A stretch of DNA of 64,000 nt from an uncultured Candidatus Micrarchaeota archaeon (lineage in GTDB: Archaea > Micrarchaeota > Micrarchaeia > Burarchaeales > Fermentimicrarchaeaceae): contig CAVXDX010000003.1 of the NCBI GenBank assembly GCA_963760615.1, positions 104,718 through 168,717 of the forward strand. The letters are read 5' to 3'. The notes under the pieces were generated by a model, which was not told the origin of the DNA, did no database searches, and saw only the letters and a program-made list of their open reading frames with translations. Both the position numbers and the translations under genes were made by a program. The first letter of the stretch is position 1; every line of letters starts with the position of its first letter. Positions 15,418-62,122 of the stretch are shown here, in pieces.

Positions 15418-15606
15418 ATGGCATCACCGAATATGATTATTTCGCGCCCATTAATAAATATAACTCTTTGAAGAAGATTCTCATCACTTAGAAAGGAGAT
15501 AAATGCAATACCAAATTTACAATACTCGCTATCCGGAAGTAACGCCCGTAATTCCGTAAAGGAGAGAGATGTTGCAAACAATATCTGTGAAGCAGGAAGC
15601 ACTCAT

Positions 15607-15665
15607 CCCTCAAAGGTGGGGGCATGTCACTAATTTATCATCAGTTTGGGGTGGAAGCATGTGAT
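15607..15665 (+). mobile_element. IS200/IS605-family right-end/omegaRNA-like relic (two adjacent GTGG-G-CATGTCA-type motifs)
   Basis: AGGTGGGGGCATGTCAC and GGGGTGGAAGCATGTGAT closely match the terminus GGTGGGAGCATGTCAC seen at 54.3 and 62.1 kb and at the tnpB element end. Confidence 0.45.
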
Positions 15666-23195: not shown

Positions 23196-23281
23196 GGGCT
23201 CGTAGCTCAGTAGCAGAGCGTTCGCTTGGCGAATTATTTCCAAAATGCGAAAGGCCGCGGGTGCGACTCCCGCCGAGTCCA
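23196..23281 (+). tRNA. tRNA-Ala (anticodon GGC) with a 14-nt intron at canonical position 37/38
   Basis: Acceptor GGGCTCG/CGAGTCC gives the G3:U70 Ala identity pair; anticodon stem TTCGC/GCGAA separated by loop TTGGCG + AATTATTTCCAAAA + T; discriminator A73; TATA-like CTTATTTAAAAA about 20 nt upstream. Confidence 0.8.
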
Positions 23282-29213: not shown

Positions 29214-29534
29214 TGCAAGGTAGATATTGCATTGCTTGTTTTTATTCCTTATGGAGCCTCAAAGCCAGCCATTGAGCATCCGCCCTTCCACAGGGCATCC
29301 AAAAACTGCCGTGCGAAGCCTTTTTGGAATTCTTCTCGGCTGGCTGAGGTCCCCCTTTGGTGGTAGCTGTTGGCTTTCGAAATGCTCCCCCGCAGAGGAG
29401 GAGGGTCCGAACGTCAGTTCCTTCATAAGTCATTTTCCTCCCTCTGATTCTTTCTGGAGGGTCTGCTAACCATAACCCTTGCAACCATGAAGTTGTGCTC
29501 TTGGAACCTTCTCATCTCATTCTCTCTGAACATT

Positions 29535-29744
29535 CTACTCCCCCCTCAGCCATCTCTCTAGGCACTTGCTGCAGAATGTTTTCTTCTCGCCATTCCACTC
29601 CTCTATCTCAACTACAAATTCCTTTGGAGAGAGCATAGGCTTATCGCATCCGCTACACCTGACACCGCGCCCATTCCAATTCCGCCCTTCACTTCCATCC
29701 TGCATACTCTCACCTCGTGGTTTTGAACAGAGGAGCAGCAGCAC
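29535..29744 (-). CDS. small zinc-ribbon protein
   Basis: 69 aa, CSGC...CSKC. Confidence 0.3.
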   Translation of the reverse strand: MLLLLCSKPRGESMQDGSEGRNWNGRGVRCSGCDKPMLSPKEFVVEIEEWNGEKKTFCSKCLERWLRGE

Positions 29745-30036
29745 AACAAGAAGTCTTACTAGAATTCAAAACAGCTGCTGCCCTCAGCACCTTATAATCA
29801 GCTTAAGCTTATAGCCGAAGCTAGAACAAGGAGAACAGTTCATATGCATGACTTCGGCTCCTGACATAAACTTTCCCCATTGTTAATTCATATGTTGCTT
29901 ATAATATTATCGGAATTTCGAACTGAATAATCTTATGGTTGCGTTTTTCATTGGCTTGGCTTTGCACATAAATCCACCTTTCACTGGAAAGCTACCCCTC
30001 CCAGAGGTTTATAAAGGGCGTTAGAGAGACTAATTC

Positions 30037-30228
30037 ATGCTTGTTTCCAAAACTCTGAAATGCAAGGTTTTCAACCCAACAAAAAGGAAGCTTGGACTTT
30101 TAAGTAGAGAATATAATAATTTCAAATTTACCACGAATAAGCGAGAAACCCACACTCTTCAGAGGTGGGATGAAAGCGAATGTATTACATTGCAGAACAA
30201 AAAAAATTTGATGAGTGATGTTGTATGA
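30037..30228 (+). pseudogene. tnpB: truncated N-terminal fragment of a TnpB (IS605 OrfB) gene
   Basis: KTLKCKVFNPTKRKLGLLSREYNNF matches the conserved TnpB N-terminus; the ORF is interrupted after about 40 aa by the left end of the intact element (hairpin at 30149-30169). Confidence 0.5.
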
Positions 30229-31282
30229 TACTGACTTTCAAAATAAGACACAACAAGGATTTCAGCAATGAGTTAAGGAAGGCAAAACAGATAGCGGAGT
30301 GTGCAGTAAAAACAAGAACGCAGTCAAGTAAGGATGTCAAGCAATTTGGATTGAAGTCCATAATATCAAACCAAATCTTAAGAAAATATTCAAGAAACAA
30401 GAGGGTTAAGGATGTGAAGAATGTCAATCTGACCATCCCCAGTCAGGGAATAACGCTTGACAAGAAACACAGGGAAATCAGGATACCGTCATTGAAGTTG
30501 TCTCTTGGATACAACTTCCGAGATTTTGAAAAGATAAACCAGATTGAGATAGACAAAGAATATGCATTCATCTCTGTGACAGTCAGGGAGATGCCCCAGA
30601 TAAAACCTGATGTCTGGCTGGGTATAGACAGGAATACAACAGGACATGTTGCCGTCATGGCAAACCCCCAGACAGGCAAGGTATTGAAGCTGGGAAAGGA
30701 GGCTGGGCATATACATAGCAAATACAAAAGCATGAGGAGAGAATTGCAGAAAAGCGGCAAATACAGAAAGGTAAAGGAAATCAGGAACCGTGAAAGCAGG
30801 ATTATCAGGGATTTGAACCACAAGATGGCAAAGAAAATTGTAGAAGTTGCAGAGGAGAACCATGCAGGATTGAAACTTGAGGATTTGAAAGGCATAAGAA
30901 GCAACAGGAAGCATAAGAAGGGATTCAACTACAATTTGCATTCCTGGTCATTCTTCCAGCTTCAGAAGTTCATTGAATACAAGGCAAAACTTCATGGCGT
31001 TCCGATAACCTATGTAGAGCCTGAAAACACATCAAAGGAGTGCTCAAGGTGTGGAAGCATAGGAATTAGGGAAGGAAAGAACTTTAAGTGCCAATGCTGC
31101 GGACACGTTGACCATGCTGATGTGAATGCATCGTTCAATATTGCATTGCGTCAAGGCATAGGTCAGTTGCATGCAGACAGTGATGCATGCAAAGGGAGTA
31201 CTGATACCCCTAAAGATGCAACGTTGATGAACGACAACGACTTCAGAACCCCACATGCTTTAGCGGTGGGGGTATGTCAGAA
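30141..31282 (+). mobile_element. IS200/IS605-family (IS1341-like, tnpB-only) insertion element
   Basis: Left-end hairpin CCCACACTCTTCAGAGGTGGG (30149-30169), tnpB ORF, right-end hairpin CCCACATGCTTTAGCGGTGGG (31249-31270) followed by GGTATGTCAG; tnpB reads through the end into flanking DNA for 7 codons. Confidence 0.6.
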
Positions 31283-31301
31283 AAAGTATTTTATTAAGTA
31301 A
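30225..31301 (+). CDS. tnpB: TnpB (IS605 OrfB) RNA-guided endonuclease-type transposase accessory protein
   Basis: N-terminus TFKIRHNKDFSNEL, RuvC-I WLGIDRN, RuvC-II E in EDLKG, zinc finger CSRCG...CQCCGHVDHADVNASFNIA. Confidence 0.85.
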   Translation: MILTFKIRHNKDFSNELRKAKQIAECAVKTRTQSSKDVKQFGLKSIISNQILRKYSRNKRVKDVKNVNLTIPSQGITLDKKHREIRIPSLKLSLGYNFRDFEKINQIEIDKEYAFISVTVREMPQIKPDVWLGIDRNTTGHVAVMANPQTGKVLKLGKEAGHIHSKYKSMRRELQKSGKYRKVKEIRNRESRIIRDLNHKMAKKIVEVAEENHAGLKLEDLKGIRSNRKHKKGFNYNLHSWSFFQLQKFIEYKAKLHGVPITYVEPENTSKECSRCGSIGIREGKNFKCQCCGHVDHADVNASFNIALRQGIGQLHADSDACKGSTDTPKDATLMNDNDFRTPHALAVGVCQKKYFIK

Positions 31302-37165: not shown

Positions 37166-38253
37166 CTTTCAGTCTTCCTGCGGTTAGTCTTTGTCCTGTC
37201 AACCCTGCCCTCTTTCTCCTTGTGGAGTATTTTTTCCATCTCATCCAGAAATGCCTTCAGAGCCTTCTCCAAATTCCAGCCGAAGGAACTTGCAGTGAAT
37301 ACTATTCCCCTTCCCATCAATCTCCCGTGTACAGAGTATTTTTTCCCATGCTTCTTGAAGTGGAGCGATATATAATCGACATCAAAGCTCTTCTTGAGCT
37401 TGCTGAGCATCTTCCTAACTTCCTCGTTTATATCCTCAACAAGCATCTTATCATTCTCCTCCAGCCCCGAGATATAAATCCCGATTTCCTCTGGCTTGAC
37501 CAGTGATGAGAAGAGGTCTCTTGCGCTGATGATTCCAACCGGTTTTCCGCCGCTCTCAACTATTAGCGTAGCAACATCTCCCTCTATGAGCTTCTTGGCG
37601 CTCTCGCTCAGACTCTCCTCAGGCTTTATGGTGTATACATCCTCTCTCATTATTGAGGAAATCTCAATGTCGTCAATATTACTCTTGCTGCTTCTCAGCG
37701 GCAGCTTATCCTTGGGCTTGTCAAGCAGGTTCGCCAGATCATATGCGGTGAGGACACCGGCAAGCTTTCCCTCCTCAGTAACGGCAAGTTTTCCGTACTG
37801 GTTGCCGTACATCCTTGATTTCGCTTTCCCCAGTAAAGTTGTGCTCTCTACCCTTGGAACCTGCCTGTCCATTACATCTTCAACTTTCATCCTCTCAAGA
37901 AGTTTCCGCTCCATCAGAATGCGCAGCACATCATTCCTCGCAAGAACCCCCACAAGTTTGTCATCATCCATCACCGGCAGCGCCCTGTACGGTCCGCTGA
38001 AGAAAAGCCTGCATATGTTGATTATGCTTGTTTTCTTCGTTATCGTGGGAGCATGTATGGCGATGTGACCGACCTTGGCGCTGGGCTTTGCAGCTGAGCT
38101 GATAAGCGTCCAGTCGTCAACTATGCCAACGTATTTCTTATCCTTCACAACAACTATGCAAGTCTTATGCCTCGGAAGCTCGCTTATAGCCCTTGTTATA
38201 GACTCTTCGGAGTCAAGCGTAAAAGCATCCTTTATCATTTCAAAAGGCTCCAT
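37153..38253 (-). CDS. 4xCBS-domain protein with C-terminal RaiA/HPF (ribosomal S30AE)-like domain
   Basis: Four CBS repeats; C-terminal segment KKSFDVDYISLHFKKHGKKYSVHGRLMGRGIVFTASSFGWNLEKALKAFLDEMEKILHKEKE parallels the HPF/YfiA core (…[28 protein letters not shown]…). Confidence 0.5.
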   Translation of the reverse strand: MEPFEMIKDAFTLDSEESITRAISELPRHKTCIVVVKDKKYVGIVDDWTLISSAAKPSAKVGHIAIHAPTITKKTSIINICRLFFSGPYRALPVMDDDKLVGVLARNDVLRILMERKLLERMKVEDVMDRQVPRVESTTLLGKAKSRMYGNQYGKLAVTEEGKLAGVLTAYDLANLLDKPKDKLPLRSSKSNIDDIEISSIMREDVYTIKPEESLSESAKKLIEGDVATLIVESGGKPVGIISARDLFSSLVKPEEIGIYISGLEENDKMLVEDINEEVRKMLSKLKKSFDVDYISLHFKKHGKKYSVHGRLMGRGIVFTASSFGWNLEKALKAFLDEMEKILHKEKEGRVDRTKTNRRKTERWIG

Positions 38254-48747: not shown

Positions 48748-51700
48748 ATGATGAAAAAATTGGTTTTTTTAACGGTCTTCCTACTTCTCATGACTCCTTC
48801 ATCTTATGCTTCTTTAACCTACCCAACCTCACCAAAAGGCACACCAAGAATTTCAAAGCAGTATATGATGCCTGCCCCAACAATCTACACGGTAAATGGC
48901 CTTTACCAAATAAACATGACAGGCCTGAGCGACTTTGACCGTCCCGGTAAACCCATTCTTCCTTTTAAGACCGTCAGCCTGCTTCTGCCTCTTGACCAAT
49001 CATTTAACAGCGTCGAGGTGATTCCTAGCCAAAGAACAGAGATAGGAAACTATAAAATCAACTATGGCAGAGTAGAACTGCCTTTGAACTGGGGTTCCGA
49101 TGCTTATGTAACGAAAAAATTCTCGAATGTAACAACAGTAATAAATCAAACTGTCTATTCTCAAAACAGTGAGTATCCCGGAGTGCTTTACTCTGTAGGA
49201 TCAATCTCAATCTTCAGAGGCTATAAGATAATTATTGTAAATCTTTATCCTGTTCAGTATATACCCAGCACAGGAGAAGTCTACTATTTCAAATCAATTA
49301 CTGTCAATGTTTATACAGATAATGTTACGTCAATCCCATCTACCTTCAGAGGCCTTGACACAGACAAGGCAGATGTTTCATCTATGGTAAGTAATCCTGA
49401 GGATATTGTTACATACAATTCTTCATATAAGTATGTTCCATCTAAAAACGAGTTTGGAACCGCCTCTCTAACTCCGGCCCAATGGGACTACGTTATCATA
49501 ACCTCAAGCAGTCTTGCAAGTGCTTTCCAACCACTACTTGATTACAAGAACTCTCAGGGTATCAAGACAACCATAGAGACTGTTGAAAACATTTACTCCA
49601 AATATTCTGGCAAGGATCAGCAAGAGCAGATTAGGAATTTCATCAAGGATGCTTACACAAACTGGGGCATCAAGTATGTTCTTTTAGGCGGTGACGGTTC
49701 TGGAGTAAATGTCGGAGGAGAGAGCGGGGTCAACATAATTCCAACAAGATATTTGTATCCTAGATTTAGTCAGGCAGACGATGCAATCCCATCTGACATT
49801 TACTATAGCGATCTAGAAGGCTCATTCGATAGCAATGGCAACGGCTATTACGGCGAGCCAGGAGATGGATGCGATATCAATCCATCCACTTGCGAGGTTG
49901 ATTTGTATGCTGACGTCTATGTCGGCAGAGCAACAGTTGCTAATGTTCAGGATGTTAATAATTTTGTTTCAAAGACTATTGCTTATGATTCTGAAAGCAT
50001 AAGCGACCCTCACAAGGGCGAGGCATTGATGGTTGGTGAGTATCTTGGCTTTGGAGGCGTTGCAAACTATGCAACTAATAGCAAGGAAGAGGTGAGGCTA
50101 GGCTCGAACCAGAACGGCTATACAACAGCAGGTTTCTATCCGGGCTACTCTGTAGATCTGATGTATGACTCCCCTGCTCACACCTGGTCAAAGGATGACT
50201 TGATTTCAAAGATCAATAACAATTCCGCCAACATCATCAATCATCTCGGTCATGGCAGCACTTTATGGGTTATGAAGCTCTGCAACGCTCCTTACTCACA
50301 ATCAGGTCCTTACTGCGGAGACAGCGGTGTCACGGATCTCAGCAGTCTTAGCAACACGAAATATTTCTTTGCCTACAGCCAAGCATGCTATTCAGGAGCA
50401 TTTGACAACTGGAATTATCAAGGTATGTACACAATGTCCGATTCAATAGCAGAGCATCTTGTCAAGGATGCTCACGGCGCTTTCGCTGTGGTAATGAATA
50501 GCAGATATGGGTGGGGTCAATTATTTTCTACTGACGGTGCGTCAGAGAGATATGACAGGCAGTTCTTCGATGCAATCTTTGGGCAGAACATCACAGAGTT
50601 GGGTAAGGCAAATACATACTCGAAGGAAAAGAACATCGGCTATCTATCTTCATCCGATCCAGCTGAAGCAGGCGTGATGAGATACGTCTACTACGAGACA
50701 AACCTTTTAGGAGATCCGACTACCCAGCTGCAGACAGACTATACAAAGCCTCAAGCTCTTATCACATCTCCGCAAATGGATGACATTTCTTACGGCTCAA
50801 TAAATGTCAGTGGGTATGCAAAAGCGGGTAAAGCAGCAGGTTCGACATTTAGGAACTATAAAATCTTTTACGGCACTGGAATGTTTCCTACTGTTTGGAA
50901 TTCTACTGGCGTGACTTTGGTTAACTATGGGTTGAGACCTGTGGACAATAATAGTCTGGGAACGATTGATACAACTCTTTTTTATGATGCGGACACTGAT
51001 TTTACAGGATGGGATTATTACGCCTATTATTGGGGAAGTGGTGCCGGTGCTTATTCAATCAAGCTGGTAGTTTACGATAACCTCGGAGCATCAACTGAAA
51101 GTATAACTCGTGGTGTTGGAGTTCATAATATAGTGCTGAACCAGCCAATGCCAAGAGATGTCTTAGGACCGATAACTGAAATAAAAGGGACTGTTTCAAG
51201 CGGGTATGCCAATCCTCTTACATCTTATAGTATTGTATATCAGCCACAAAATACTACGGGATGGTCTGCGAGTGGAATAACACTAACTAACAGTGGAACA
51301 CAGCCTGTTTATAACGGTGTCTTGGGAGTTTTGAACGCCGGTGGATTAAATACTGGATGGTATACCTTTAGATTAATAGCTGTTTATACGTATAATACTA
51401 AAATGCAGACCATAGAAAATGTTTATATTGATACAACCTTAAGACCTGGTTGGCCGCAAAGAGTTTATTTTCAAGGTATAGATAATCCTTACTTTTGGAC
51501 TTCCCATATTGTTTCAAGTGGAATTAATATCAGCAATCTTAAAAACTTGAGTATTAATTTAAGCTCATATGGTAAAATTGCCCCAGGAGGTAATATAGTA
51601 AGTAGTGTAAATTACCCTCTTTATAATATATCTAGTTTATCATCTGGATTTGTCAGTCCTTATCAGCCAGGAAACTTTGAGCCAGTTGTTAGCGATATCA

Positions 51701-54270
51701 ACGGTGACGGCAAGGATGAAATAATAGTTTTTCAACCAGGAGAGAATACTGCTAGTTTTGGACAAGAAGTCCCAGGAATAATATCTGTTTTCAGTCAAGA
51801 TGGAACACTTTTATATAATTGGTCTATACCAAGTCCTACTATTCCGCCTGGTGGTCTTGGTACCCCTTTAGGTGGAATGGGTTCAGTGTGGCTTCCACCA
51901 TTTGCAGTTGCGCCTCCTTCTGTTGCAAATATAGACGGTGATAATGATGAAGAAATTGTAATCCCAGTTGCTCCTGCCCCTACAGAAGTTGCTACTTTAA
52001 ATGTTTATGAATATAACGGCACATTATTAAAAACTCTAGATTCTTCAAGAGATAATTATGATTTTAGGAATGAGCCTCTAATAGCAAATTTGTTCAATAA
52101 TGGAACTATGTATGTTGTAAAAAAAGTTGATTATTGCGAAATAGAGCAGCCTCAACCGAACGTACATGAATGGGATGCTTGCTTGAAAGTTTATGACCCT
52201 CAAGGGAATATGCTAAACGGTTGGCCTGTTTCAACCAAGCCTTCCGCCGGAGCGCTAATAATGTTTGGAAAAGTTAATCCAAATCAAGTTGTTGGTCATT
52301 TTGAAAACAATAAGAACTCGGACATTGTCGACTTTTCTACTGTTCATTGGAATCCTCGGGGTAATCGTGATGGCCTTAAACTCACTGTTTATACGCCAAA
52401 CGGAACCATTCTCCCAGGATTTCCTGTTGTATGGGATGACGGTCTTATCCACACAGCCTCAGACCCTGTTGTAGGAGACATTAACAGGGATGGAAAAGAT
52501 GAAATAATTTTTGTTCATAATGGCGGTACTCTAACTGCCGTAGATAGTAATGGCAATACACTGTGGACTCAGAATTTTCAAGTGCAAGGAGCAGGAGGTA
52601 ATACTTATCAGTATTCAAAATCTCCTGCTTTGATTGATATTAATCATGACGGTTATCTAGAGATTGTATTAGTAACAGGTAGTCACGAATACATCGTAGA
52701 TCATACAGGAAATATTATTAAAGATTTTATAATAGCATATGGTGTTAGTAATATGGCAACTGCCCAATTTGATGATAATGCTGCTCCTATAACCGAAAAG
52801 TCACCTGTAGTCGTTGATTTGAATAATGATGGCGTTTCTGACATTTTGACAACATCACAGAATTGGGAAGCTTATAATGGTGGAGACTTTGTCGGATTTG
52901 ACGACATTCAAGAGATTCATGCCTTCAATCCTTTGGACATTAATAACAGCTCATGTTTTGACAGTAATAATGTATACCTGTGCGAAAAGAAATACTTTCC
53001 AGGTTTTCCAAAAATTATGGAATCTTCAATTTTCTTTTATGCATCTCCAGTGATTATTAATAAGGATGGAAAGGTTGAAATAGTAGCAACTTCAAGTATG
53101 GATGACCTTTTTAAAGGAAGAGCAAGCATCTATGTTTGGGATACTAACATAACTTATGGACCAGAAGCAGCATCGTGGCCTATGTTCCAGCACGATGAGA
53201 TGCATACTGGCAGGTTTGTATTCCCACTAACTCTAGTCCAATCCGTCAATCCCGCATCCGGAACTGCAGTTGCACCGGTCACACCAACATTCATCTGCGG
53301 TTATTATGACACAAATAATGCTCCAATACTTGGAGCCAGTGTTAATGTCACCATTGACTCAAATATTCACACTGCAACCTACAACTCAACTACTGGTGAT
53401 TACCGCTATTCAGGCCTGACGCTCACTACGGCAACCCATAAATGGTACTGCAGTGCGTCAGCATCAGGATACAACACCAAGATAGGTGCTAACCAGACGT
53501 ATCTTTTTGTAACCCCCATGCCGGTAGCAGCCCTCAAAGGAGGCCCAAACGGACAGCTATATGTCCCCAACATAACAGGCATCAATTACCTGAAAGTGGA
53601 TTTGTGGTGCAACATGAGCAACACAGACTGCCAGTTTATTGGCGGCAGGCAATACTGCGGTTGCACACGCATGCAGTGCGACCAGACAGGAGCCACTGCG
53701 GCAAACCGACCATACCCAACAATAACAAACTGGCCGGACGGCAGGATTAACCTGCAGGACACAATGTTTGAGAACCTCAATTTCGGTCAGAACGAAGGCA
53801 TGCCTGCCTGGAACTACACGGCAGACTGTATTCCAGACAGGAGGACTAACCTGCAGGATACTGCTGGTGCAAGCTACAGATTTGGAGCAATAGGCGGAAC
53901 CTATTCCAACAACACTGCAAATATAAAAGTCCTTTTCAACAATGACCCAAGCTTCAAGATGCCCGATGTATACGGATACATACAGATTCCTTCAGGTGCT
54001 GTGAACTTCACTGTATATAACGGAACAAAGCCAGTGATGGCGCTGGTGACATTCTACAACAGCTCAATCTTATACCAACTCGCACCTGCAACCAAACCAA
54101 GCACTCAAGTCCAGACAACAGCTCTTATGGCACCAACCGTTGAGATGCCGGTAGGAAACACATGGACGATGGCAGTGGTTCTCATAGCAATAATAGGCTT
54201 GGTGATTGGCTACTTCATCCTAAAGGAAATTCTGTACATAAGCGTCCCAAGAAAAAAGAAGAGAAAGTAG
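48748..54270 (+). CDS. giant secreted surface protein: peptidase C25 (gingipain-like) domain + FG-GAP/beta-propeller-like repeats + C-terminal TM anchor
   Basis: Signal peptide MMKKLVFLTVFLLLMTPSSYA; C25-like segments YVIITSSSLASAFQPLLDYKNSQGIKTT, YVLLGGDGS, INHLGHGS (His) and YSQACYSGAF (Cys); repeated DINGDGKDEII/DINRDGKDEII/DLNNDGVSDI; C-terminal TM + KKKRK. Confidence 0.7.
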   Translation: MMKKLVFLTVFLLLMTPSSYASLTYPTSPKGTPRISKQYMMPAPTIYTVNGLYQINMTGLSDFDRPGKPILPFKTVSLLLPLDQSFNSVEVIPSQRTEIGNYKINYGRVELPLNWGSDAYVTKKFSNVTTVINQTVYSQNSEYPGVLYSVGSISIFRGYKIIIVNLYPVQYIPSTGEVYYFKSITVNVYTDNVTSIPSTFRGLDTDKADVSSMVSNPEDIVTYNSSYKYVPSKNEFGTASLTPAQWDYVIITSSSLASAFQPLLDYKNSQGIKTTIETVENIYSKYSGKDQQEQIRNFIKDAYTNWGIKYVLLGGDGSGVNVGGESGVNIIPTRYLYPRFSQADDAIPSDIYYSDLEGSFDSNGNGYYGEPGDGCDINPSTCEVDLYADVYVGRATVANVQDVNNFVSKTIAYDSESISDPHKGEALMVGEYLGFGGVANYATNSKEEVRLGSNQNGYTTAGFYPGYSVDLMYDSPAHTWSKDDLISKINNNSANIINHLGHGSTLWVMKLCNAPYSQSGPYCGDSGVTDLSSLSNTKYFFAYSQACYSGAFDNWNYQGMYTMSDSIAEHLVKDAHGAFAVVMNSRYGWGQLFSTDGASERYDRQFFDAIFGQNITELGKANTYSKEKNIGYLSSSDPAEAGVMRYVYYETNLLGDPTTQLQTDYTKPQALITSPQMDDISYGSINVSGYAKAGKAAGSTFRNYKIFYGTGMFPTVWNSTGVTLVNYGLRPVDNNSLGTIDTTLFYDADTDFTGWDYYAYYWGSGAGAYSIKLVVYDNLGASTESITRGVGVHNIVLNQPMPRDVLGPITEIKGTVSSGYANPLTSYSIVYQPQNTTGWSASGITLTNSGTQPVYNGVLGVLNAGGLNTGWYTFRLIAVYTYNTKMQTIENVYIDTTLRPGWPQRVYFQGIDNPYFWTSHIVSSGINISNLKNLSINLSSYGKIAPGGNIVSSVNYPLYNISSLSSGFVSPYQPGNFEPVVSDINGDGKDEIIVFQPGENTASFGQEVPGIISVFSQDGTLLYNWSIPSPTIPPGGLGTPLGGMGSVWLPPFAVAPPSVANIDGDNDEEIVIPVAPAPTEVATLNVYEYNGTLLKTLDSSRDNYDFRNEPLIANLFNNGTMYVVKKVDYCEIEQPQPNVHEWDACLKVYDPQGNMLNGWPVSTKPSAGALIMFGKVNPNQVVGHFENNKNSDIVDFSTVHWNPRGNRDGLKLTVYTPNGTILPGFPVVWDDGLIHTASDPVVGDINRDGKDEIIFVHNGGTLTAVDSNGNTLWTQNFQVQGAGGNTYQYSKSPALIDINHDGYLEIVLVTGSHEYIVDHTGNIIKDFIIAYGVSNMATAQFDDNAAPITEKSPVVVDLNNDGVSDILTTSQNWEAYNGGDFVGFDDIQEIHAFNPLDINNSSCFDSNNVYLCEKKYFPGFPKIMESSIFFYASPVIINKDGKVEIVATSSMDDLFKGRASIYVWDTNITYGPEAASWPMFQHDEMHTGRFVFPLTLVQSVNPASGTAVAPVTPTFICGYYDTNNAPILGASVNVTIDSNIHTATYNSTTGDYRYSGLTLTTATHKWYCSASASGYNTKIGANQTYLFVTPMPVAALKGGPNGQLYVPNITGINYLKVDLWCNMSNTDCQFIGGRQYCGCTRMQCDQTGATAANRPYPTITNWPDGRINLQDTMFENLNFGQNEGMPAWNYTADCIPDRRTNLQDTAGASYRFGAIGGTYSNNTANIKVLFNNDPSFKMPDVYGYIQIPSGAVNFTVYNGTKPVMALVTFYNSSILYQLAPATKPSTQVQTTALMAPTVEMPVGNTWTMAVVLIAIIGLVIGYFILKEILYISVPRKKKRK

Positions 54271-54294
54271 TGCTTAACAAGGTGAGTGGGAAAT

Positions 54295-54325
54295 CCCACA
54301 TGCTTTAGCGGTGGGAGCATGTCAC
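54295..54325 (+). mobile_element. solo IS200/IS605 right-end (omegaRNA 3' scaffold-like) relic
   Basis: CCCACATGCTTTAGCGGTGGGAGCATGTCAC: 21-nt hairpin identical to the tnpB element right end, plus the AGCATGTCAC terminus. Confidence 0.5.
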
Positions 54326-62075: not shown

Positions 62076-62122
62076 GCATTAAATTGTGTCTTCTGGACTA
62101 TTTAACATTTGCGAGCAGGAAA

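Follow-up and report, generated by a model that had tools for sequence, protein, structure and literature searches.

The 64,000-nt window analysed here, taken from an uncultured Candidatus Micrarchaeota archaeon, carries two forward-strand open reading frames (ORFs) of 63 and 358 aa that lie in different frames and overlap in the tetranucleotide ATGA. The longer ORF is a tnpB gene, the shorter one begins with the N-terminus of another TnpB protein (TnpB'), and one hairpin of the type that ends IS200/IS605 insertion sequences lies upstream of tnpB and a second one at its 3' end. According to our comparative analysis, window positions 29959-31280 are very probably a conglomerate of two different TnpB-carrying insertion sequences, in which an IS608-like element sits inside an element with 15-nt terminal inverted repeats (Table 1). 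A preliminary description of the locus had proposed that an intact tnpB element inserted into an older copy of itself. The nested insertion is borne out by empty sites in tnpB' genes, whereas the host belongs to a different TnpB family (about 35% identity) and the inner element is not intact: its tnpA and the tnpA promoter are lost, while tnpB itself is undamaged. This is a nested transposon of an ordinary, well-understood kind, and nesting, tnpB-only derivatives, omegaRNAs overlapping tnpB and terminal-only stubs have all been documented.

Table 1. Coordinates of the two nested elements, their parts and the related stubs in the 64,000-nt window.
Feature	Position	Strand	Basis or remark
Left terminal inverted repeat GCTTTGCACATAAAT of the older TnpB' element	29959..29973	+	15-mer opens the homology in L026, L027, L028 and L031
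TnpB' remnant: inverted repeat, conserved GGAAAGYTACCCC block, TATA-like box, tnpB' codons 1-31 (30037-30129)	29959..30131	+	Alignments with L026-L031
TATA-like box TTTATAAAG; the stub ATG follows after about 21 nt	30008..30016	+	Conserved in the window, the L001 group, L026 and L027-L031
63-codon upstream ORF: tnpB' codons 1 to about 29, 1-nt frameshift, read-through of the inner left end	30037..30228	+	Ends in ATGA overlap with the tnpB start
TTAC target and left cleavage tetranucleotide, predicted target-adjacent motif (TAM)	30128..30131	+	Six full-length relatives have (A/C)TTAC at 17-19 nt before the left hairpin; IS608 rule (PMC3201880)
Inner left end: head 30132-30148 CACGAATAAGCGAGAAA, hairpin 30149-30169, tail beginning ATGAAAGCGAATG, tnpA-deletion junction, last tnpA-frame bases ending GATGTTGTATGA	30132..30224	+	
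tnpB, 358 aa, intact; last 6 codons and stop in flanking DNA	30225..31301	+	
Covariation-supported omegaRNA scaffold, 120 nt, overlapping the tnpB 3' end	31161..31280	+	RNAalifold, 18 loci
Right-end hairpin 31250-31270 and 10-nt tail GGTATGTCAG	31250..31280	+	Element terminus 31280
Predicted guide portion of the omegaRNA, AAAAAGTATTTTATTA	31281..31296	+	Inferred from its position directly 3' of the right end; length assumed
Decayed third gene-less stub AGCAGGAAGC..GGTGGGGGCATGTCAC, left hairpin arm mutated	15580..15630	+	Start approximate
Gene-less 47-nt stub: left-end-type head, one hairpin, right-end-type tail AGCATGTCAC	54279..54325	+	After TTAAC
Gene-less 48-nt stub of the same kind, left-end-type loop	62107..62154	+	After TTAAC

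The inner tnpB gene has the complete N-terminus, RuvC motifs and zinc finger that had been ascribed to it. The 358-aa ORF matches the Cas12f1-like TNB domain (Pfam PF07282) at E 2e-22 and carries GIDRN at residue 133 (133-137), LEDLKG at 218 (218-223), HADVNAS at 297 (297-303) and the CSRCG/CQCCG pair at 273/289 (273-277, 289-293). The glutamate and the last aspartate align with catalytic residues in solved Cas12f/TnpB structures, which match only the C-terminal RuvC/TNB half of the protein (residues 173-310 among the matches listed); the first aspartate was judged by family conservation of G(I/V)DRN only. More than 2000 database relatives of the inner TnpB were found, and we inspected 13 homologues of 334-432 aa from Thermoplasma, Methanohalophilus, Conexivisphaerales and many uncultured archaea, representing several archaeal phyla. 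All but one begin with the family start MILTF(K/N)..H, the remaining one begins slightly later, and the extra residues of the longer homologues are all C-terminal; judged by this comparison, the N-terminus of the inner TnpB is complete. Relative to L001, a metagenome locus with a 90%-identical copy, dN is 0.044 and dS 0.355 (nonsynonymous and synonymous divergence; dN/dS 0.125); the gene is intact and evolves under purifying selection. The closest tnpB relatives come mostly from Thermoplasmata metagenome bins, and a scan of species-representative genomes, a set to which the genome of the window does not belong, yielded 21 loci with a best match of 70% identity. We also observed that the clade of TnpB proteins of about 340 aa is 56-72% identical over Thermoplasmata, Methanosarcina/Methanohalophilus, Micrarchaeota, Conexivisphaerales and Aenigmarchaeota, and that it occurs in bins labelled Proteiniphilum, WOR-3 and Rhabdochlamydiaceae as well. 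This spread reflects either recent transfer between phyla or contaminated bins.

The inner element is a tnpA-less member of the IS200/IS605 family with IS608-like ends and spans window positions 30132-31280. Its left hairpin CCCACACTCTTCAGAGGTGGG, which the DNA fold shows as well, and its right hairpin CCCACATGCTTTAGCGGTGGG, which is followed by the tail GGTATGTCAG, are subterminal imperfect palindromes on the same strand and homologous to the left- and right-end hairpins of the six full-length tnpA-tnpB relatives that we compared for their ends (L006, L010, L013, L014, L017 and L019). In these six elements, the left end consists of (A/C)TTAC, 17-19 nt ending in GCAGAAAG, the hairpin and ATGAATGCGA, and the right end of CTTAGAAC, the hairpin and AGTATGTCAG up to the terminus. 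The window fits both signatures, with TTTAC, CACGAATAAGCGAGAAA, hairpin and ATGAAAGCGAATG on the left, where TTAC stands 17 nt 5' of the hairpin, and with CTTCAGAAC, hairpin and GGTATGTCAG on the right. The hairpin arms vary compensatorily (CCCAC/GTGGG, CCTAC/GTAGG, CCTCC/GGAGG), and the pattern common to both ends occurs four times in the window versus 0.06 times expected (0/100 shuffles), the other two occurrences being the gene-less stubs with hairpins at 54295 and 62124. Moreover, four metagenome loci that are 90% identical to the window cease to match it exactly after GTATGTCAG, at 31280, and L020 and L022, two copies from one genome, part ways directly after TCAG. The fit to the end signatures, the stop of homology at 31280 and the divergence of L020 and L022 after TCAG together place the element at 30132-31280, and by the same comparison the hairpins are the ends of the tnpB element. 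Both had previously been read in this way; the left one matches at exactly the coordinates then given (30149-30169), and the right one likewise marks a real end but starts at 31250 instead of 31249. The flanks show no target duplication, and the inner element has no inverted repeats. The tnpB frame reads past the right end, as had been noticed, by six sense codons and a stop, and a 90% relative, whose flank is different, reads only three codons into it.

The 3' end of tnpB overlaps a structured RNA. We aligned 18 loci from the NASFNI motif to the right end, and RNAalifold returned four stems and an invariant long-range pairing of CUGAUA (31201-31206) with the terminal UGUCAG (31275-31280); stem coordinates in the window are 31167-31175/31184-31192, 31215-31225/31236-31244 and, for the terminal hairpin, 31248-31253/31267-31273. 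Of the alignment cells concerned, 96.4% are paired, and compensatory changes occur in 18 of the 34 pairs. None of 500 shuffles reached these values, and slid partners pair at 30-46%. The window sequence of the scaffold alone folds with z = -3.7, and in the comparison with L001, dS is 0.41 over codons 1-300 but 0.13 over codons 300-352, which overlap the RNA. Furthermore, the protein tail varies as the stems covary (LHADSDACK, LNTDRDVFK, IKERDLME), and therefore the RNA and not the peptide is the conserved object. Rfam contained no family matching the window sequence at the gathering threshold or at E up to 10. The preliminary description had expected an omegaRNA scaffold at 31150-31282 with a guide from 31283 and had named a covariance analysis as a check; run on the 18 loci, this analysis supports a scaffold, with limits of 31161-31280, and the guide is predicted to begin at 31281.

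Relatives at 59-70% TnpB identity carry a Y1 tnpA gene of about 400 nt upstream of tnpB (Pfam Y1_Tnp, E 7e-41), whose stop codon overlaps the tnpB start as ATGA, and tnpA precedes tnpB in most of the 21 loci of the genome scan. In the window, the left hairpin is separated from tnpB by 55 nt only, the roughly 400-nt tnpA and the A/T-rich promoter region of the relatives being deleted. Because it is without tnpA while relatives at 59-70% identity have this gene, the window copy is a non-autonomous derivative that could move only with a Y1 TnpA supplied in trans.

The DNA in front of the inner element belongs to an element of another kind. Neither Pfam, which gave no match for the 63-aa stub, nor a word-index search with the stub, which returned two relatives only, went far, but an exhaustive phmmer search with the relative P0126 showed that its first approximately 50 residues match the N-termini of TnpB-like proteins. 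A DNA-pattern scan of metagenomes then revealed five loci that share the promoter block and the start with the stub, four of which encode a complete TnpB' of 348-351 aa. TnpB' is a genuine TnpB protein (Pfam TNB, E 3e-22), although only about 35% identical to the inner TnpB. The stub corresponds to residues 1-31 of intact TnpB' (71-77% identity, tblastn E 5e-10 to 3e-9) and the match stops at 30126-30129, in agreement with the earlier view of 30037-30228 as a TnpB N-terminus cut short where the inner element begins. At the break point, intact tnpB' genes read CAAATTTAC directly followed by GTCAGRAGCGG, with TTAC in place in L027 and L031; these uninterrupted genes are an empty-site control for the nested insertion.

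Elements of the host family carry tnpB only and have perfect 15-nt terminal inverted repeats, GCTTTGCACATAAAT and ATTTATGTGCAAAGC (L027, L029, L030, L031). Upstream of the 15-mer shared by L026, L027, L028 and L031 the left flanks differ, and its reverse complement closes the elements in L027, L029 and L031; among six copies we saw neither a target duplication nor a conserved left-flank motif. In the window, the right inverted repeat of the host is missing, the 15-mer having one exact copy there, and TnpB' residues 32-350 have no match elsewhere in the window (tblastn). The remainder of the host element is thus absent from the window, which corrects the earlier reading. L026 (2182-2496) provides a third context of the stub, in which the promoter and the first approximately 55 tnpB' residues run into an ORF whose C-terminal half weakly resembles a TRAM domain (E 7e-4, below the Pfam cut-off), and this ORF looks like a chimera that arose by truncation of a host element. 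For P0126, whose C-terminal half gives a weak TRAM-domain match (E 7e-4, below the Pfam cut-off), the ORF is possibly a fusion of stub sequence with an adjacent gene. The sequence GGGAGTATACTC in L026 was considered as a decayed right end and rejected, as it encodes the conserved GVYSLTK of TnpB'.

We propose that an older element, delimited by terminal inverted repeats of 15 nt, had its own promoter and expressed from it a TnpB' of about 350 aa, and that an IS608-like IS200/IS605 element inserted 3' of TTAC within codon 31 of tnpB'. An internal deletion would have removed tnpA and the tnpA promoter of the inner element, with the left-end hairpin apparently intact and with tnpB, the omegaRNA scaffold and the right end kept, and whatever followed the right end as the remainder of the host would have been lost. 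The TATA-like box conserved in front of the stub is a putative archaeal promoter for a leaderless or near-leaderless mRNA, and this captured tnpB' promoter probably now drives transcription of tnpB and of the precursor of the omegaRNA. Translation of tnpB would probably be coupled to the 63-codon upstream ORF via ATGA, an arrangement that mimics the tnpA-tnpB overlap of the full-length relatives. The complex of TnpB and omegaRNA, presumably an active nuclease, would recognise TTAC, its predicted TAM, together with the sequence now flanking the right end.

A second lineage with the same arrangement is available for comparison. L001, L002, L024 and L025 are relatives at 90% identity in which the same stub is joined to the same tnpB at another genomic site, between ksgA and a zinc-finger/PadR region, the window site being upstream of rpl7ae. 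L001, L024 and L025 have their left flank in common, and the four loci appear to represent one orthologous insertion. This group keeps the left-end head and the left hairpin arm (ending GCGGGAAAG-CCCAC) directly after TAC and is without the loop, the right arm and the next approximately 33 nt, an indel of 50 nt that amounts to 49 nt net over the interval. As read from this alignment, its state is a deletion that destroyed the left hairpin and not an empty site. Its upstream ORF has 47 codons and ends at the same ATGA despite different indels; hence the frame from the tnpB' ATG is open up to the ATGA overlap both in the window and in the L001 group. Three indels separate the window from L001, namely a single nucleotide in the T-run of the stub, another one in the guide tetranucleotide and the 50-nt indel; their sum is a multiple of three, and restoring the T in the window stub leads to a stop at a TAA in the left-end head. 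We cautiously suggest that the open frame reflects selection for an ORF coupled to tnpB, with the captured promoter as the driver, although chance may also account for it. In L001, at 2230-2300, and also in L024 and L025, a further sequence that resembles a left end of the inner family (GTGAGTGGGAAAT .. ATGAAAGCGAAC) replaces the host inverted repeat just upstream of the stub promoter; its hairpin is destroyed, and its 13-nt head is identical to the stub head at 54283-54295 of the window.

Several observations weigh against the proposed history or limit it. No tnpA was detected in the element or in the 64-kb window (tblastn, best E 0.49), which leaves its current mobility in doubt. The 4 nt 5' of the left hairpin of the window are GAAA, one base short of the AAAG found in the relatives, in L001 and in IS608, and the left end may already be impaired. 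The loss of the host remainder could be due to deletion, to recombination between two copies of the inner insertion sequence or to composite movement. The open upstream frame could have arisen by chance, for which our rough guess, not a computed value, is a few per cent per lineage. Finally, third-position identity between the window and L001 is 55% in the stub versus 82% in tnpB (hand count), and given this unequal divergence the stub and tnpB may not share one history.

The most serious alternative is that the stub and the inner element form a new composite mobile unit that moves as a whole, the stub being kept as a promoter with a coupled upstream ORF. In such a unit, the stub would be an exapted expression module and not debris: the promoter and start codon of the host tnpB' would keep a tnpA-less tnpB alive, and two lineages would independently have fixed different indels (two losses of 1 nt in one, one loss of 50 nt in the other) to give a leaderless upstream ORF coupled to tnpB via the ancestral tnpA-type ATGA. 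The same stub-tnpB arrangement at two unrelated loci, with both flanks differing, would agree with this, as would an upstream ORF that is open to the ATGA in both lineages and a dN far below dS over the first 29 stub codons, and the left-end-like sequence upstream of the promoter block in L001 is a possible outer left end. However, the left limit in the window is the host inverted repeat and not a hairpin-type end, so that a Y1 transposase could not have moved the unit; only two independent composites are known, and the metagenome scan with the stub gave uninterrupted host elements only. Moreover, the low dN/dS of the stub possibly dates from the time when tnpB' was functional. Both the composite unit and the exaptation of the stub are possible but, in our view, rather doubtful. 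The captured promoter with its coupled upstream ORF is the one aspect of the locus that may be new, and the case for it comes from two lineages.

A second alternative starts from the left hairpin itself, which could be a separate gene-less stub, like those at 54279 and 62107, inserted into a pre-existing fusion of tnpB' stub and tnpB, with the L001 group as the empty state. Such stubs do occur in this genome, and L001, L002, L024 and L025 have the tnpB' stub joined to tnpB without the loop, the right arm and the following 33 nt or so. Yet L001 retains the head and the left arm (CACAATATAGCGGGAAAG-CCCAC) right after TAC, as a deletion would leave them, and since the L001 state is a deletion and not an empty site, the hairpin is not a separate small insertion. 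The tail behind it is of the left-end type (ATGAAAGCGAA versus ATGAATGCGA in full-length elements) and not the AGCATGTCAC of the stubs, and homology to TnpB' ends at TTAC in both the window and L001. We consider this alternative very improbable. Least of all does the reading survive that a single tnpB was divided into the two ORFs by a frameshift, real or due to sequencing, in a run of eight A (present, although at 30199-30206 and not at about 30198-30205), which the preliminary description had itself raised as the finding that would overturn it: adjacent frames, a 4-nt overlap and the nearby homopolymer speak for such a split, but it has next to no probability given that the 13 inspected homologues begin MILTF or close to it without an N-terminal extension, that the stub stems from another TnpB family, in which intact genes have a different sequence beyond residue 31, that full-length relatives have tnpA and not a TnpB extension up to the same ATGA, and that the two coding parts are separated by a left-end hairpin complete with its two flank signatures.

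Among known systems, the inner element comes close to IS608 (ISHp608), the Helicobacter pylori element that serves as prototype of the IS200/IS605 family and in which TTAC lies 19 nt 5' of the left palindrome, cleavage occurs 10 nt 3' of the right palindrome and the left guide tetranucleotide (GL) is AAAG (PMC3201880). In both, each end carries a subterminal imperfect palindrome, insertion takes place 3' of a TTAC that lies about 19 nt 5' of the left hairpin (17-19 nt here), and the right end falls 10 nt past the right hairpin, at TCAA in IS608 and TCAG here. They also share AAAG 5' of the foot of the left hairpin (here in the relatives) and the gene order tnpA-tnpB, and both are without inverted repeats and without target duplication. 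Unlike IS608, the window element has an archaeal host, no tnpA, TCAG as right cleavage site and GAAC 5' of the right hairpin, and its TnpB is shorter (about 335-350 aa in this family) and comes from a separate, highly conserved archaeal clade. With TnpB-omegaRNA (OMEGA) systems such as ISDra2 TnpB it shares the RuvC D/E/D residues and the zinc-ribbon TNB domain, a structured RNA over the tnpB 3' end that stops where the transposon stops on the right, a long-range pairing beside the guide and an ORF running into the flank. In contrast to these systems, the window RNA has no Rfam match, and activity, TAM and RNA ends of the window system are predictions. The host element resembles the IS1341 group in carrying tnpB only, at several unrelated sites, but is bounded by perfect 15-nt terminal inverted repeats and not by hairpin ends.

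Our analysis provides a cleanly delimited archaeal TnpB element with a predicted TAM of TTAC, exact ends and an omegaRNA scaffold of about 120 nt supported by covariation. It belongs to a compact TnpB family (about 335-350 aa) that is unusually conserved over archaeal phyla and could serve the mining of small RNA-guided nucleases. The locus also documents, with empty-site controls, how one TnpB family inserts into another, and terminal-only decay products of the inner element's family are documented in the same genome. The understanding of IS200/IS605 biology remains unchanged by these findings.

These decay products are the three gene-less stubs of Table 1, which lie in intergenic DNA on the same strand and each combine a head of the left-end type (AGYRGGAAAY), one hairpin and the right-end-type tail AGCATGTCAC. 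The loop of the stub at 54279 is of the right-end type and that of the stub at 62107 of the left-end type, which suggests, as far as the loops can tell, that the core was deleted by recombination between the similar hairpins with different crossover points. Haloquadratum walsbyi carries IS605-type transposons, PATEs and 52-bp 'terminal-only' PATEs (Dyall-Smith et al. 2011, PMC3119063), and the three stubs fit the terminal-only PATE definition (about 50 bp, non-coding, fused termini, single palindrome; PMC3119063). As in the locus described here, H. walsbyi has archaeal tnpB-only elements (IS1341-type) with near-terminal palindromes and frequent nesting (PMC3119063), and core deletion between similar palindromes yields stubs of about 50 bp with fused termini, the form seen at 54279, 62107 and about 15580. 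The stubs of the window differ from the Haloquadratum PATEs in lineage and sequence, and their crossover points can be read from the loops. A match to the right-end tail at 38045 lies inside a gene and is probably due to chance. An ORF of 1840 aa (48748-54270) with a signal-peptide-like N-terminus and a C-terminal hydrophobic anchor and basic tail (by eye) has its stop 9 nt before the start of the 54279 stub and 25 nt before the stub hairpin.

Around the conglomerate, the genes rpl7ae, rps28e, rpl24e and ndk (Pfam) follow directly downstream of the inner element. Upstream, about 700 nt (29230-29958) contain only short overlapping ORFs on both strands and may be either more mobile DNA in decay or an intergenic region of unusual length. 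Elsewhere in the window, Rfam calls a tRNA at 23196-23281 (56 bits) that is not reported by ARAGORN, and its length of 86 nt suggests an intron-containing archaeal tRNA.

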